Below are positions 25,208 through 43,176 of a DNA stretch of 60,230 bases, piece after piece. The notes below the pieces were generated by a model. It worked only from the letters and a program-made list of their open reading frames with translations. It searched no databases and was not told the origin of the DNA. Position 1 is the first letter of the stretch. Each line of letters begins with the position of its first letter. The stretch is from the NCBI GenBank assembly GCA_043798935.1, contig JAZDOC010000005.1:1-60230 (forward strand), read 5' to 3'. Origin of the DNA: Patescibacteria group bacterium (GTDB lineage Bacteria > Patescibacteriota > Patescibacteriia > UBA9570 > JAHJKD01). A program made the position numbers and the translations under genes.

Positions 25208-25465
25208 TTAATTTTGAATAAGTTCTTTCTTATAATTTCGCGAAAGTTTTTTAATGGCGACTTCCCGTTTTAAAGCAGTGCTTTTATCTGCATACAATTT
25301 AGAATATACAATTTTCTTTGCTTTGTGTGCACGAGTATAACGACTGGCAGTTCCGGCCATGTGCTGAACTAGGCGTTTATTAACATCTATAGCAATGCCG
25401 GTGTAAAGCGAACCATCAACACATTCAAGCATATAAACATAATATGGTTGCTTATTTATTTTCAT
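25208..25465 (-). CDS. GIY-YIG nuclease family protein (UPF0213-like, 85 aa)
   Basis: YYVYMLECVDGSLYTGIAIDVNKRLVQH ... ALKREVAIKKLSR. Confidence 0.85.
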   Translation of the reverse strand: MKINKQPYYVYMLECVDGSLYTGIAIDVNKRLVQHMAGTASRYTRAHKAKKIVYSKLYADKSTALKREVAIKKLSRNYKKELIQN

Positions 25466-30450: not shown

Positions 30451-30527
30451 TGGCAGGGGTGGCAGGATTCGAACCCGCAACACGCGGTTTTGGAGACCGC
30501 TGCTCTAGCCATTGGAGCTACACCCCT
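30451..30527 (-). tRNA. tRNA-Trp (anticodon CCA)
   Basis: AGGGGTG TA GCTC CAATGGCTA GAGC A GCGGT CTCCAAA ACCGC GTGTT GCGGG TTCGAAT CCTGC CACCCCT G CCA. Confidence 0.9.
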
Positions 30528-30579
30528 TTATAACCCCGAGTGATTGCCCAAATGGCAATTGTATCGAGGGGTTACGATA

Positions 30580-30741
30580 TTATTTTGTTTCTTTATGTGG
30601 AGTGTGTTTGCGGCAATGCTTGCAATGTTTTTTTAATTCAAGTTTACCAGCTTGATGCAGTTTCTTTTTATTCTTTTTAGTATAATGCGTTACACGTTTG
30701 CATTCCTTACATTCCATTTTTGTCAGATTGTCTTGAGACAT
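30580..30741 (-). CDS. rpmG: 50S ribosomal protein L33
   Basis: Manual translation: MSQDNLTKMECKECKRVTHYTKKNKKKLHQAGKLELKKHCKHCRKHTPHKETK (53 aa, below the ORF-track cutoff). Zn-ribbon form of L33. Confidence 0.9.
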   Translation of the reverse strand: MSQDNLTKMECKECKRVTHYTKKNKKKLHQAGKLELKKHCKHCRKHTPHKETK

Positions 30742-30780
30742 ATTGTATATTAATTTTCAATTATTAGAAATTGCTATTTG

Positions 30781-30853
30781 AGCCAGCGAAGGGACTCGAA
30801 CCCCCGACATGCTGTTTACAAAACAGCTGCTCTACCAACTGAGCTACGCTGGC
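30781..30853 (-). tRNA. tRNA-Thr (anticodon UGU); 3' CCA is not encoded
   Basis: GCCAGCG TA GCTC AGTTGGTA GAGC A GCTGT TTTGTAA ACAGC ATGTC GGGGG TTCGAGT CCCTT CGCTGGC T, followed by CAA. The T-stem has two G-U pairs. Confidence 0.8.
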
Positions 30854-30856
30854 ACT

Positions 30857-30943
30857 TGGTGGGCAGGGAGGGATTTGAACCCCCGAAGGTCGAAGACCGC
30901 TTGGTTTACAGCCAAGTCCATTTGACCACTCTGGCACCTACCC
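30857..30943 (-). tRNA. tRNA-Tyr (anticodon GUA), long variable arm
   Basis: GGGTAGG TG CCA GAGTGGTCAAA TGG A CTTGG CTGTAAA CCAAG CGGTCTTCGACCTTC GGGGG TTCAAAT CCCTC CCTGCCC A CCA. Confidence 0.9.
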
Positions 30944-31168
30944 ATTTTCTATATTGAAAAATTTTTCAATATATTTCCGTTTCTTGTTTCTTTTTACGTT
31001 TTTCTCGGCGGAATATGCTTTTCTAACATCTAGATATTCTTTACATGCAATTAATTTCCAAGGAGCTTTCGACTTTGTATATTGTGATTTACCTGTATTA
31101 TGTTCTTTAAGCCTTCTTTTAATGTTATTTGTTGTACCAACATAATAACTTGAATCAACTGTCTCCAA
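30938..31168 (-). pseudogene. N-terminally truncated GIY-YIG (UPF0213-like) ORF; TTG start; stop codon inside tRNA-Tyr
   Basis: ..SSYYVGTTNNIKRRLKEHNTGKS..APWKL keeps the YIG and R..EH motifs but lacks the first GIY strand. The TAG stop (30940-30938) lies within nt 1-6 of tRNA-Tyr. Confidence 0.5.
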
Positions 31169-31262
31169 AATTTTTCAAATTTTGTGAGAAATCGAGAATC
31201 CTCGATTTTTCAACTGCGATGCTATGCATCGCCGGAAAAATCGGGACTCTGGCACCTACCCA
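31161..31262 (-). repeat. Two-hairpin element (copy A) preceded by a 17-nt duplicate of the tRNA-Tyr 5' end
   Basis: 31246-31262 equals 30928-30944 (actctggcacctaccca). Hairpin: TCCCGATTTTT (31246-31236) / AAAAATCGAGGA (31210-31199) enclosing GCGATGC-ATA-GCATCGC (31232-31216). The second hairpin is degenerate. Confidence 0.6.
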
Positions 31263-31293: not shown

Positions 31294-31322
31294 AATATAA
31301 ACTAAATTTTTAAAATGGTCAA
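31294..31322 (-). promoter_or_regulatory. Candidate promoter TTGACC-17-TATATT of the tRNA/rpmG transcription unit
   Basis: Minus strand: TTGACC (31322-31317), a 17-nt spacer, TATATT (31299-31294). It lies 32 nt upstream of the duplicated tRNA-Tyr 5' fragment. Confidence 0.4.
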
Positions 31323-31329
31323 TATATGG

Positions 31330-31827
31330 TTACTCAACGTTAATAACAATGCTAATTTCGTCGTTTTCTTCATATGAATAAATTCCAACCGACAAATTAC
31401 GACCGTCTTTTTTAGCCACAAAAATCGAAGTATTTCCGCTAATTGCCATTATATTATGACTTTCAATGGTCCAACCATTGCTTTCTAGCTCTGTTTGATA
31501 AAATTCATCAATTTCATTATAGCTGTCGGTTGAAGACATGGTTAGAGCAAATTGATTTTCGGCTGTTGTTGAAGCTGCTAGAATTTTTTTATCTGTGTAA
31601 ACCGGCACATCACTCGGAAAATCATCAGGCAAGCTGATATTCTGGCCAGTTGTAATGGTGTTACCGTCTGCAGTTGTAATGTTTACATTACTATTATCAA
31701 TATCCACCTCTGCACCAGTAGCATTTTCGATAGCCTTTTCCGCAGTTGTTTCAGCAATTTTCTCGCTTGCTCCACAACCGGCGAATATTATTGTTAATAC
31801 TGCCAACATGATTAATGTTTTTTTCAT
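31330..31827 (-). CDS. Lipoprotein, unknown function
   Basis: Signal peptide with lipobox IFAGC. Confidence 0.55.
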   Translation of the reverse strand: MKKTLIMLAVLTIIFAGCGASEKIAETTAEKAIENATGAEVDIDNSNVNITTADGNTITTGQNISLPDDFPSDVPVYTDKKILAASTTAENQFALTMSSTDSYNEIDEFYQTELESNGWTIESHNIMAISGNTSIFVAKKDGRNLSVGIYSYEENDEISIVINVE

Positions 31828-32001
31828 AGAAATTAAATTTAATGATTTTGTTTATAATAACATTTATTAATAGCCTAAGCAACAAAAACTAGTTTGATAA
31901 TGATTTATATTCTACGCCCTGTTATTATATATAATTTTGCCACTGGCTTTACTCTACGCCCACGCCCATAAAGGGCGGGGCTTATAATGAACGGTCTAAA
32001 G

Positions 32002-32658
32002 TTAAACTTGCAAACGACCGATAACAGGATATTTGGATAAAACTTGTTTCGCATGATAGCTGTAAAAAGCATTTGTTAATTCTGTTCCGGCTAAATGTGA
32101 ATAATGACGACCACTTTGAAATGTGCGTGATAAATCGTAAACATCTCCATCTACCGCTACATAAGCCGGCATATTATTCTGACCATTATATTTTGCTAAA
32201 TCGCTAAGAGTAAAAGTTTGAATGTTGGTTTTAGTGGTCGAGTTTGTAGAAGAATTAAAATCTATTTTAATATCAATATTTGTATTAGCATTAGTTGTAG
32301 CACTATAATTTGAATTGTTTAATGAGCTTGAATTATTACTATCGTTGCTTTCGGGTTTATAAAATTTATCAGCATAAATAAAAAAACTAATAAATAAAAC
32401 AAAAAAAACAACTAAAGCTAAAATTCCCGAGGCTTTCCAAATATGCCAACGTTTAAAAGCTAAATGAATTGCAAATGAAGTGTGAATAACAAAAACAATT
32501 AAAATTATATAGCTTAAATAATCCATGTGCACTTTAGCACTAAAAGCCGGATCAATTATACCTTTGCTCATTCCAAAGCCACTGATAAAATAAAATAGGA
32601 TCCCGATAAATAAAATCCACGCCGAAATACGGTCGATCTTAAATAGATATTTTGGCAT
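32002..32658 (-). CDS. Membrane-anchored cytochrome b5-like heme/steroid-binding domain protein
   Basis: Four N-terminal TM helices, an Asn/Ser-rich linker, and a C-terminal LAKYNGQNNMPAYVAVDGDVYDLS....GRHY..AG. Confidence 0.6.
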   Translation of the reverse strand: MPKYLFKIDRISAWILFIGILFYFISGFGMSKGIIDPAFSAKVHMDYLSYIILIVFVIHTSFAIHLAFKRWHIWKASGILALVVFFVLFISFFIYADKFYKPESNDSNNSSSLNNSNYSATTNANTNIDIKIDFNSSTNSTTKTNIQTFTLSDLAKYNGQNNMPAYVAVDGDVYDLSRTFQSGRHYSHLAGTELTNAFYSYHAKQVLSKYPVIGRLQV

Positions 32659-42931: not shown

Positions 42932-43007
42932 TGGAGCCGTTGTGCGGAATTGAACCGCAGACCTTCCCCTTACCATGGGGATGCTCTACCAACTGAGCTA
43001 CAACGGC
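42932..43007 (-). tRNA. tRNA-Thr (anticodon GGU)
   Basis: GCCGTTG TA GCTC AGTTGGTA GAGC A TCCCC ATGGTAA GGGGA AGGTC TGCGG TTCAATT CCGCA CAACGGC T CCA. Confidence 0.9.
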
Positions 43008-43019
43008 AAATTTTTACAA

Positions 43020-43120
43020 GCTGCTCTACTCCCGATTTCAGCTTTGCTGAAATCGGGGATCCTCGATTTTTCTATGTCGATGCTTTGCATCGATCATGAA
43101 AAATCGGGACAACTGAGCTA
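43020..43120 (-). repeat. Two-hairpin element (copy B) embedded in a tRNA-Thr(UGU)-like D-arm/anticodon-arm fragment
   Basis: Minus strand: TAGCTCAGTTG | TCCCGATTTTT...TCGATGC-AAA-GCATCGA...AAAAATCGAGGA | CCCGATTTCAGC-AAA-GCTGAAATCGGG | AGTAGAGCAGCTTGTAAA. Confidence 0.6.
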
Positions 43121-43121
43121 T

Positions 43122-43153
43122 TTACCCGCCACATCAAATACCAGGGCGGGTAA
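43122..43153 (-). terminator. Stem-loop (TTACCCGCC / GGCGGGTAA, 14-nt loop) downstream of the TPR gene
   Basis: 9-bp GC-rich stem. No clear U tract on the minus strand, so terminator function is uncertain. Confidence 0.35.
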
Positions 43154-43176
43154 CGGCATATTTTAAAACTAATAGA

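Follow-up and report, generated by a model that had tools for sequence, protein, structure and literature searches.

Why should the first nucleotides of a tRNA gene stand twice on the same strand, with a hairpin and the remains of a nuclease gene between the two copies? The question is raised by the tRNA-Tyr gene of a 60,230-nucleotide (nt) stretch of DNA from a Patescibacteria group bacterium (assembly GCA_043798935.1, contig JAZDOC010000005.1, positions 1 to 60,230), which we call, in its full length, the window. The 17-mer ACTCTGGCACCTACCCA was found there exactly twice, at 30928-30944 and at 31246-31262, in a search allowing 2 mismatches, and the chance expectation for it in the window is none, even at 2 mismatches. 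A first-pass annotation, made from the letters alone, had placed the repeat at both of these sites and had taken the arrangement for the scar of a mobile cassette; the positions are borne out by our search. Since ARAGORN calls an intact tRNA-Tyr(gta) at 30857-30943 on the minus strand (57 bits with the Rfam tRNA model), the proximal 17-mer represents nt -1 to 16 of the intact gene. The distal one, also on the minus strand, is an exact copy of the start of that gene and is left as an orphan 5′ fragment without a 3′ partner. The insert between the two direct 17-nt repeats measures 301 bp, and 302 nt lie between the fragment and tRNA-Tyr.

Our comparisons with other genomes lead us to the view that this locus is probably a decayed composite of two selfish elements, both of which would exploit tRNA genes in Patescibacteria. 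The first (element A) would be a cassette carrying a GIY-YIG nuclease of ~80-95 amino acids that settles in, or just before, the 5′ part of a tRNA gene and leaves behind, in this order, a displaced piece of the tRNA (nt 1 to x), the nuclease gene and a complete tRNA, with the open reading frame (ORF) running up to or into the tRNA. The second (element B), here called the R-type element, would be a non-coding double hairpin whose insertion is precise and duplicates no target, with a preference for tRNA loops.

The insert in front of tRNA-Tyr

Read 5′ to 3′ on the minus strand, the insert begins with hairpin 1 of the R-type element (31200-31245; -24.2 kcal/mol, z = -5.5), which has the sequence (T)CCCGATTTTTC, then an inner hairpin GCGATGC-ATA-GCATCGC, then GAAAAATCGAGGA, and whose left end adjoins the tRNA-Tyr fragment at nt 16/17, that is, in the D-loop. 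There follows a weaker, A/T-rich and degenerate hairpin 2 (~31160-31199, minus strand); set against the intact hairpin 2 (TCCTCGA…TCGGGA) of 38 other copies and of two loci described below, L043 and L037 (loci from other genomes are given as L with a number), its 5′ arm TTCTCGATTTC can still be made out, and in place of the 3′ arm, or fused to it, stands the start of an ORF. This ORF, 76 codons from a TTG (30938-31168, minus strand), belongs to the GIY-YIG family. Folding and the list of ORFs together located every one of these parts, as the first-pass annotation had named them.

The annotation had also described the ORF as lacking the first GIY strand and ending within the tRNA, and both statements proved accurate. 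Its match to the Pfam family PF01541 (E = 1.8e-13) covers profile positions 11-77 of 78, so that the first strand must be missing, and its stop codon, the TAG at 30940-30938, is formed by tRNA-Tyr nt 4-6. Three codons before the TTG start the frame is interrupted by a TGA (31175-31177), and around it the window reads …CAC AAA ATT TGA AAA ATT TTG GAG… where relatives have M-F-Y-V-Y-(I/V)-L-(K/E); the two first-strand Tyr positions are now ATT and AAA codons with the TGA between them. In an alignment of 13 GIY-YIG proteins the nearly invariant column-5 Tyr is absent from the window ORF, and Y16, G18, R26, H30 and E62 are invariant in 13/13 sequences, the window ORF included. We therefore regard the ORF, as far as its sequence can tell, as most likely a pseudogene, or at best the gene of a binder unable to cut, its truncation being due to a deletion that brought hairpin 2 up against about codon 6. 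A genetic code in which UGA stands for Gly, which would rescue the frame, was considered and rejected, as long ORFs throughout the window translate normally under code 11.

Two loci in other genomes are built like the window locus and are more complete. At the tRNA-Glu(ctc) of L043, nt 1-11 are followed by R-type hairpins 1 and 2, nt 12-17, a short linker, a GIY-YIG ORF and the intact tRNA, with an insert of 323 nt; the ORF reads into the tRNA, stops at nt 12-14, and is itself broken by a 1-nt frameshift in the same strand that the window ORF has lost. At the tRNA-Met of L037, nt 1-23 are followed by R-type hairpins 1 and 2, nt 24-30, a linker and a GIY-YIG ORF that reads into the tRNA, with an insert of 319 nt. 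Since the tRNA fragment of either twin is taken up again beyond hairpin 2, the double hairpin must have entered later, into a fragment that was already displaced, and the junction of the cassette must lie further 3′. By the same comparison the break at nt 16/17 in the window D-loop marks the point where the hairpin element inserted and not the junction of the nuclease cassette. The idea of a cassette scar thus survives in part: a relic of mobile DNA in the 5′ part of a tRNA gene, with the intact tRNA kept, is supported, and its layout recurs at 10 or more loci, but two elements are involved rather than one, and the D-loop break that had been assigned to the cassette is the end of the hairpin element.

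Relative to its twins, the window lacks the rest of the fragment, the ATG and the codons of the first strand, for which a deletion reaching from inside hairpin 2 to about codon 6 is the simplest reading. The history of the window locus may then have run in three steps. At the outset a GIY-YIG cassette would have separated the functional tRNA-Tyr from a displaced copy of its 5′ end; an R-type element would then have entered the displaced fragment at nt 16/17 of the D-loop; and a deletion would finally have taken away the right arm of hairpin 2, what was left of the fragment and roughly five codons from the start of the nuclease gene. What the window preserves is a fossil, consisting of a nuclease gene without its catalytic first strand, a half-decayed hairpin element and an intact tRNA-Tyr.

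One further structure in the insert, a perfect 24-nt palindrome TATATTGAAAAATTTTTCAATATA at 30950-30973, lies within the final codons of the ORF, 6 nt short of tRNA-Tyr, and may be the relic of a flanking arm. A weak match of GAAAATGGGTA at 30953-30943 to the right-arm sequence AAATCGGGA was not used as evidence. Nor did we retain a tandem duplication extending beyond the 17-mer, since the similarity between 30949-30976 and 31300-31327 spans 26-27 nt at only 70-73% and is out of register. A tRNA intron, whether of group I or of the bulge-helix-bulge type, was rejected as well: the tRNA-Tyr that follows the insert is uninterrupted, the fragment has no 3′ partner, and no Rfam intron or ribozyme model matched in the insert region.

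The double-hairpin element and its insertion sites

The hairpin had been called conserved in the first-pass annotation, and this turns out to hold well beyond the tRNA-Tyr locus, with a second copy in the window at 43030-43109 and ~57 further copies in other genomes. One scan of a species-representative genome collection with CCCGATTTTTC-N15-40-GAAAAATCGAGG returned 62 loci with the 23-nt core, of which 57 have the full two-hairpin plan and 5, lacking the following ATCC and the second hairpin, resemble chance matches. The plan shared by the full copies is (G)T/CCCGATTTTTC, a variable hairpin, GAAAAATCGAGG, A, TCC(T)CGA, a variable stem-loop and TCGGGA/ (slashes mark the junctions), so that the R-type element can be described as a non-coding unit of 60-95 nt with the precise ends TCCCGA…TCGGGA. 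Its hosts are nearly all metagenome-assembled genomes (MAGs) of Patescibacteria (Saccharibacteria, Buchanan-, Yanofsky-, Wolfe-, Lipton-, Portnoy-, Taga- and Paceibacteria), and a few are MAGs labelled Bacteroidales, Rikenellaceae, Chlorobiota or Gammaproteobacteria. There are 2 copies in the 60-kb window, and in several MAGs the matches are spread over contigs, up to 6 in one MAG. The hairpin core had no copy in the viral contigs searched.

The inner parts of the element vary in sequence and keep their pairing. Hairpin 1 has 37 distinct inner sequences among 38 well-delimited copies, and nearly all of these fold into hairpins more stably than shuffled versions of themselves. In an alignment of 20 copies, four inner pairs have both sides changed in 5-8 sequences each, and a compensatory change already separates the inner stems of the two window copies (gCGATGC/GCATCGc vs tCGATGC/GCATCGa). 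The inner loops are mostly of three bases and of the GCGAAGC/GCAAAGC kind, which is typical of stable DNA mini-hairpins. Loops of this kind hint that the relevant structure forms in single-stranded DNA, and the R-type hairpins matched no Rfam family at either the gathering or the E-value threshold.

Of the 59 copies in the family (57 in other genomes and 2 in the window), 22 lie within 600 nt of a tRNA gene, where a random rate of ~5% can be estimated from a 1.2-kb window, a 1-Mb genome and ~45 tRNAs (this estimate is our own). For those copies for which a reference tRNA is available, the junction can be placed exactly. It falls at the D-stem or D-loop in the window tRNA-Tyr (16/17), the window tRNA-Thr (18/19) and L015, L019, L043 at 11/12; in the anticodon loop at L039, L024, L055 and L059; and in the T-loop at L055, L059 and L024. 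Excision in silico restores the tRNA sequence exactly at five loci (the window tRNA-Thr, L015, L019, L039 and L043), and it follows that the R-type element makes no target duplication.

Insertion is not confined to tRNA genes. The element is found in protein genes and in intergenic DNA and in both orientations, the latter as its near-palindromic ends, GTCCCGA…TCGGGAC, would lead one to expect. Seven of 38 copies are read through within long open frames, again in both orientations. In the folD genes of L004 (3417-3511) and L018 (3227-3298), an R-type element stands at the same codon without introducing a stop, and the read-through peptide has the form …G-PDFSS…RKIEDPR…NR(D/E)-K…, with inner hairpins that differ between the two genomes; the shared site reflects either a hot spot or one old insertion common to both genomes. 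To the left of the element stands usually a G, often within TTG, yet this flank varies, and no fixed target word of 4-5 nt could be established. We infer that an R-type insertion in a tRNA gene persists only where the tRNA copy that was struck is dispensable.

The second window copy illustrates such a case. A short-word search of the window with the insert led to a complete R-type element without an ORF (43030-43109, minus strand) inside a pseudo-tRNA-Thr that is evident from the sequence at 43013-43157 (minus strand), directly upstream of the intact tRNA-Thr(ggt) at 42932-43007. On the minus strand the pseudo-tRNA comprises the piece GCCGTT (43152-43157), a G+C hairpin insert ACCCGCC…GGCGGGT after nt 6 (43124-43151), the piece TAGCTCAGTTG (43110-43120), the R-type element and the remnant GTAGAGCAGCTTGTAAA (43013-43029). 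The sequence around the element runs TAGCTCAGTTG / TCCCGATTTTTC…GAAAAATCGAGGA TCCCCGATTTCAGC-AAA-GCTGAAATCGGGA / GTAGAGCAGC…, and removal of TCCCGA…TCGGGA joins CTCAGTTG to GTAGAGC, which is a normal tRNA-Thr D-loop, so that the element sits precisely in the D-loop of the pseudo-tRNA, 22 nt upstream of the intact gene. Nucleotides 8-18 of tRNA-Thr are thereby repeated 113 nt upstream of tRNA-Thr(ggt). The 146-nt region that holds this copy folds at -66.9 kcal/mol (z = -9.7).

Two side observations belong here. The remnant GTAGAGCAGCTTGTAAA is closer to tRNA-Thr(tgt) than to tRNA-Thr(ggt). Small G+C-rich inserts of ~21-35 nt form a class of their own that splits pseudo-tRNAs after nt 6-9, as in GGCCCTAT[TCCGCCTCCGGCAGACCGGGG]CGTCTAG, and were seen at L136 and L125 (both upstream of tRNA-Glu(ttc)), at L024 and, in the window, at 43124-43151.

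An intact tRNA of the same type was present within ~450 nt at every tRNA-associated locus inspected, and at some loci it is carried by the element itself. At L039 a tRNA-Ala(tgc) is split at CATTTG/CAATG by hairpin 1 and by a hairpin 2 that holds in its loop a second tRNA-Ala(tgc), complete and different from the first, and excision of the whole insert yields an outer tRNA that ARAGORN calls. L059, a Buchananbacteria contig, has the same order of Tyr, Thr(tgt), rpmG and Trp as the window; its outer tRNA-Thr(tgt) is split at TTTTG/TAAAC by a 159-nt element carrying an inner tRNA-Thr(tgt), and cutting out the 159 nt likewise restores an ARAGORN-callable tRNA-Thr(tgt). The tRNA-Thr(ggt) upstream of it is also a tRNA within a tRNA, with a further element in the T-loop of the outer copy. 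A hairpin 2 tRNA lies inside a resident tRNA of the same anticodon at L039, L055 and L059. The arms can enclose nuclease genes in the same manner: at L024 the loop of hairpin 1 is a GIY-YIG ORF and the loop of hairpin 2 is a tRNA-Ala, and at L034 the arms TCCCGATTTTCTAAAATTTTT…AAAAATTTTTAGAAAATCAGGGA of hairpin 1 enclose a full-length GIY-YIG ORF together with a tRNA-Glu.

The L059 contig shows other traces besides. Between 5050 and 7050 on the minus strand, its tRNA-Tyr is accompanied by a 35-nt 5′ fragment, two GIY-YIG genes and 3′ fragments; a hairpin of another type (CCACCGCC…GGCGGCA) is present, and the tRNA-Trp has a 5′ pseudo-fragment upstream.

GIY-YIG cassettes, duplicated tRNA ends and rival explanations

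How general the duplication of tRNA ends is can be seen from a census of exact, same-strand tRNA fragments of at least 10 nt within 600 nt of 105 tRNAs, taken at 143 loci and in the window. Upstream fragments, mostly starting at nt 1, accompany 36/105 tRNAs and downstream fragments, mostly reaching the 3′ end, 31/105, where we estimate a chance expectation of ~0.04 per tRNA per side, i.e., ~4 per side. The layout of the window, in which a 5′ fragment is followed by a GIY-YIG ORF and an intact tRNA and the ORF ends at or in the tRNA, occurs at at least 10 independent loci and with different tRNAs. When the window and the 62 loci selected by hairpin were searched with a profile of the window ORF and its relatives, 17 GIY-YIG ORFs came to light, most of them directly 5′ of a same-strand tRNA. 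As a guard against circularity, a second sample was drawn by protein similarity only, with a 4-sequence alignment, and gave 80 metagenome loci with 86 GIY-YIG ORFs.

Six loci of this sample share one pattern. The ORF stop abuts a tRNA at L118, L122, L141, L121 and L113 and lies 16 nt before one at L132, and in all six an exact copy of tRNA nt 1-11 (10 nt in L132) stands 291-304 nt upstream, directly 5′ of the ORF. Their common layout is GGGCxxxTAGC, CC, CTCACTTGRAAA…, the ORF, …TTTYCAAGTGAG and the intact tRNA, in which the 16-nt arms are inverted repeats. Counted by ORF, such an exact copy of nt 1-10 or 1-11 accompanies 6/7 of those with a stop no more than 10 nt from a tRNA, and L132 besides, the seventh being L125. 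At L125 (stop 7 nt before the tRNA) nt 9-30 are repeated and at L136 (5 nt before) nt 9-35, in both cases within an interrupted pseudo-copy of nt 1-35; other loci have duplications of 12-35 nt that nearly always begin within two bases of nt 1.

Arms frequently resemble the ends of tRNAs. The left arm supplies a new tRNA 3′ end (…CACCA) at L091 and L098, where the displaced original comes after the right arm, and at L063 and in the CTCAC type of arm the right arm ends in GGG, which is tRNA nt 1-3. A protein gene is involved at L076 (1303-1600), where a GIY-YIG cassette with CCCCACACC arms lies between diverged duplicates of the 3′ end of a protein gene (~70 nt, the last ~20 codons), and the visible divergence of the two copies looks as if the end of a donor gene came in with the cassette. 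Separately, L084 (124-750) carries two GIY-YIG cassettes with identical arms in tandem, with only ATAA between them.

The nucleases themselves form a compact group. A similarity search with the 76-residue window protein had a single match, on a 772-nt contig, and the relatives assembled here are bare single catalytic domains of 79-95 amino acids. Compared with solved structures, a profile of 13 members matched best the UPF0213 proteins 1zg2 (E = 8e-17) and 1ywl, followed by eukaryotic SLX1, and no NCBIfam family scored above its cut-off, with TIGR01453 (group I intron endonuclease) at 18-24 bits against a cut-off of 56. As judged from these matches, the family is a minimal single-domain GIY-YIG of the UPF0213/SLX1-like kind without a DNA-binding domain, and the homing endonuclease of the Seg type that the first-pass annotation had in mind has to be given up. 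At its C-terminus the window protein carries KRNKKRKYIEKF, a KxNKKR form of the K-x-W-K-K-R type of motif, and this type accompanies R-type hairpins in 6/7 cases.

The window holds a second, full-length GIY-YIG gene of 85 amino acids (MKINKQPYYVYMLECVDGSLYTG…) at 25208-25465 (minus strand), flanked by genes that read in translation as an ABC-F-like ATPase and a RibD-C-like protein. No tRNA, hairpin arms or R-type motif lies near it, and by its sequence it looks like a different, possibly resident, subfamily.

A resident nuclease gene is also the core of the rival explanation that survives best. It holds that two unrelated parasites share a safe site, that the GIY-YIG gene is a resident co-transcribed with the tRNAs, perhaps with a role in DNA repair or in RNA, and that the 5′ fragment arose by local repair or duplication after hairpin insertions. 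Such a view would fit with prokaryotic SLX1-like proteins being regarded as mostly vertically inherited (Dunin-Horkawicz et al. 2006, PMC1564403), with the finding that most of the protein-selected ORFs have no R-type hairpin nearby and 58/86 no same-strand tRNA downstream, and with ORF-less inserts of 47-124 nt between a 5′ fragment and an intact tRNA at L003, L039, L054, L097 and L118. However, where the stop codon abuts a tRNA, the copy of the 5′ end is nearly always immediately 5′ of the ORF, so that nothing but the ORF and its arms stands between the two copies. Of 75 GIY-YIG ORFs, 54 are flanked on both sides by exact inverted repeats (11-23 nt), whereas 63/75 shuffled controls have none and the longest control repeat is 11 nt; the ORF-less 124-nt derivative at L118 has the same arms and the same junctions as the cassette at that locus; and arm type and nuclease C-terminal type go together. 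We consider the explanation unlikely.

It has far less going for it to regard the hairpin and small ORF as a functional leader, retained by the host for the processing, stability or attenuation of a transcript. That transcript would run from tRNA-Tyr through tRNA-Thr(tgt) (30780-30853) and rpmG (30580-30741) to tRNA-Trp (30451-30527), all on the minus strand and downstream of tRNA-Tyr, the tRNAs being called by ARAGORN and rpmG taken from the list of ORFs. The first-pass annotation had pointed to TTGACC-17-TATATT (31322-31294, minus strand), upstream of the displaced fragment, as the only good promoter of the unit. The motif is present and agrees with the consensus at 10/12 positions, and its TTGACC is kept in a relative with 79% identity (L143), but such matches are no commoner here than in shuffles of this A/T-rich region. 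If it is used, tRNA-Tyr would be transcribed from upstream of the fragment, and the co-transcribed insert would be removed as a leader by RNase P. The position of this only good match, the great stability of the hairpin, and the way in which hairpin 2 arms bracket tRNAs like a processing stem in several genomes would all suit a leader. The same element in both orientations, in protein genes and in intergenic DNA would not, nor would the mostly 3-nt loops of the DNA mini-hairpin type, the lack of a match to any Rfam family, or the visible decay of hairpin 2 and of the ORF in the window, and together these make a leader function very improbable.

A further hairpin within the same unit, CCCCTCGATACAATTGCC-ATTT-GGGCAATCACTCGGGG between rpmG and tRNA-Trp (30534-30571, minus strand), carries at its base (CC-T-CGA with TCGGG and a bulged T) the signature of R-type hairpin 2. 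It may be a solo degenerate R-type unit or simply the rpmG terminator.

Exceedingly improbable is the reading of the 17-nt repeat as the attachment-site (att) scar of an integrase island or as a fixed-length target-site duplication made by a conventional transposase. Direct repeats do flank the 301-bp insert, and there is an archaeal precedent for a tRNA 5′ fragment followed by a recombinase-bearing element and a tRNA (PMC3293823). Yet an examination of the domains of neighbouring ORFs found no integrase or transposase near either window locus, the repeat varies from 10 to 35 nt between loci, and the R-type element duplicates no target. The duplicated end is also the 5′ end of the tRNA and not the 3′ end. 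Islands borne by integrases usually duplicate the 3′ end.

An assembly artefact, which the first-pass annotation had named as what could undo the repeat, can be dismissed in practice: the window probably comes from a metagenome assembly, repeats can cause mis-joins and the contig of a relative breaks 20 nt after the upstream gene, but many assemblies made independently in separate projects show this layout again, and 17 nt is shorter than typical assembly k-mers.

Several of our observations nevertheless weigh against the reading of the locus as a composite of two tRNA-exploiting elements, or at least limit its reach. Among the 86 protein-selected ORFs only 14 have a tRNA start within 100 nt of the stop (7 within 10 nt), which implies that the nuclease family is broader than tRNA invasion, and R-type motifs are rare near these ORFs. 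The link between nuclease and R-type hairpin rests on ~9 loci. The duplicated segment varies in length (10-11, 16-17, 23, 27 and 35 nt), so that no single simple mechanism fits, and the recognition motif published for the nearest described system does not match these hairpins (see below). The order of events in the window is drawn from only two twin loci. Finally, we found no empty site and no presence/absence polymorphism for the window locus, and mobility at this locus therefore rests on comparison with other genomes. Its only close relative, L143, is an 882-nt contig 79% identical to window positions 31312-32236 that is uninformative about an empty site, as it ends 20 nt past the gene of an upstream lipoprotein; an exact protein look-up of this lipoprotein gave no record. 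The L143 contig ends at the conserved TTGACC, where the repeat-rich tRNA region would begin, and assemblies may break at R-type elements.

With these reservations, we tentatively suggest that the loci compared here could represent an undescribed class of self-compensating invaders of tRNA genes in Patescibacteria, made up of minimal GIY-YIG nucleases and their cognate hairpin arms, which would enter tRNA genes in a loop or at the 5′ or 3′ end; displaced tRNA pieces would then serve as landing pads for hairpin mini-elements. The nuclease would recognise the arms or hairpins as single-stranded DNA and nick nearby, as the analogy with SsnA (below) and the DNA-type loops suggest, and repair or strand transfer would copy the cassette into the DNA of a tRNA gene. 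In an essential tRNA gene present as a single copy, only an insertion that makes good its own damage would last, whether through a tRNA carried as cargo, arm ends resembling those of a tRNA or a duplicated target, and this would explain why the cargo anticodon is always that of the host gene and why ORF-less elements pile up in displaced fragments. Recombination between an inner tRNA and the 3′ remnant of the outer one may in turn delete the right arm and leave a fragment, an element and an intact tRNA.

Comparison with known systems

If this suggestion is correct, ultra-small bacteria have their essential, single-copy tRNA genes invaded and replaced over and over by small nuclease cassettes, a path of tRNA gene turnover and of horizontal transfer that would so far have gone unrecognised, and the stand-alone bacterial GIY-YIG proteins considered here would have a primarily selfish, mobile role. 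Stand-alone GIY-YIG proteins of ~80-95 amino acids would thereby gain a concrete role, and the idea of a nuclease paired with a hairpin repeat, as in the Ssn system, would be extended to a new family of hairpins, new hosts and a new target, the tRNA gene. Should the nucleases be hairpin-specific on single-stranded DNA like SsnA, they would also be candidates for new specificities in cutting such DNA. For annotation, it matters that tRNA fragments and pseudo-tRNAs upstream of real tRNAs are common at these loci, and that peptides of 20-30 residues of the 'PDFS…RKIEDPR' kind inside enzymes such as FolD are translated mobile DNA. In full-text literature searches, which do not extend to subscription journals, we found no description of tRNA invasion with regeneration of the tRNA by such cassettes, and at the level of the family the phenomenon appears not yet to have been described.

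The R-type element resembles several known kinds of short repeat. The Rickettsia palindromic elements, which Ogata and co-workers reportedly described in 2000, are said to insert in frame into protein genes and to be translated there. With these and with miniature inverted-repeat transposable elements (MITEs), it has in common that it is a short, palindromic, non-coding repeat of a reduced genome, found in frame in protein genes and also in RNA genes, with terminal inverted repeats (TCCCGA/TCGGGA) and many copies within and between genomes. It differs in sequence, in its two-hairpin plan, in its hypervariable inner hairpins, in a strong bias toward tRNA loops and in that its arms can enclose a nuclease or a tRNA gene; unlike a MITE, it has no target-site duplication (five loci). 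Hairpin ends, precise insertion without target duplication and short non-autonomous derivatives are shared with IS200/IS605 elements and with PATE and REP repeats. In contrast to IS200/IS605, the only protein associated with the R-type element is a GIY-YIG nuclease; no Y1 (HUH) transposase was seen beside any of the R-type copies examined, no systematic search having been made for one.

Two further systems share the neighbourhood of tRNA genes. The Seg proteins of T4-like phages, among them SegB in the tRNA cluster (PMC2330249), had been offered as the precedent in the first-pass annotation, and the comparison holds for the GIY-YIG fold and for a GIY-YIG gene beside tRNA genes, though not for domain structure. 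Spread by DNA breakage and repair, with copying of flanks, would be expected of Seg-like elements, and the diverged duplicate flanks at L076 and L059 (where inner and outer tRNAs differ) would be in line with it. Seg proteins, however, have a separate DNA-binding domain and cut double-stranded DNA, whereas the proteins studied here consist of the bare catalytic domain, and their genes are bracketed by inverted repeats, reside in cellular genomes and are accompanied by a duplicated tRNA 5′ end. In Archaea, a tRNA was disrupted by a 1.8-kb insert encoding a recombinase, among tRNAs with introns (Sugahara et al. 2012, PMC3293823). There, too, a tRNA 5′ fragment lies upstream of a mobile insert and is followed by a complete tRNA of the same kind, but the insert described here is of ~0.3 kb, encodes no recombinase and has a bacterial host, so that the archaeal case is analogous in outcome and not in machinery.

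The closest described system would be Ssn of Neisseria meningitidis, as portrayed in the relevant passages of its report (Chenal et al., Nat Commun 2025, PMC11893778). SsnA, a GIY-YIG protein of 94 amino acids, binds the hairpin repeat NTS when the DNA is single-stranded, and only then, and its cut falls a few bases upstream of the repeat; its Y6A, Y17A and E64A mutants bind but do not cut; the ssnA gene is often bracketed by the repeat (NTS-ssnA-NTS), of which there are hundreds of copies; and the authors note an architecture like that of an insertion sequence (IS), with a parallel in IS200/IS605 and REP/RAYT (PMC11893778). However, the R-type hairpins and the CTCAC/CCCCCACACC arms do not fit the SRM motif published for that system: searched in the window and in R-type and CTCAC-type test sequences it gave no match, whereas the NTS control does match. 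As an observation on its own, positions 2481-2509 of L043 (TGTCATCCCGCACTCGATGCGGGATCCAG) match the SRM motif, in a genome that also carries R-type elements. A term search of PMC11893778 returns neither tRNA nor Patescibacteria, its passages on the system do not describe target regeneration, cargo tRNAs or in-frame insertion, and the best solved relatives of the nucleases studied here are UPF0213 proteins. As for the flanks of the gene, 54/75 relatives have inverted repeats on both sides and R-type arms enclose it at L024 and L034, whereas in the window the hairpins lie upstream of the ORF only, its 3′ end having just the internal palindrome. At the level of architecture the two nevertheless appear alike, as each combines a single-domain GIY-YIG protein of about 90 amino acids with scattered copies of a hairpin repeat that may also bracket the gene, and as the catalytic Y6, Y17 and E64 of SsnA, in the passages of the report that name them, have their counterparts in columns 5, 16 and 62 of our alignment.

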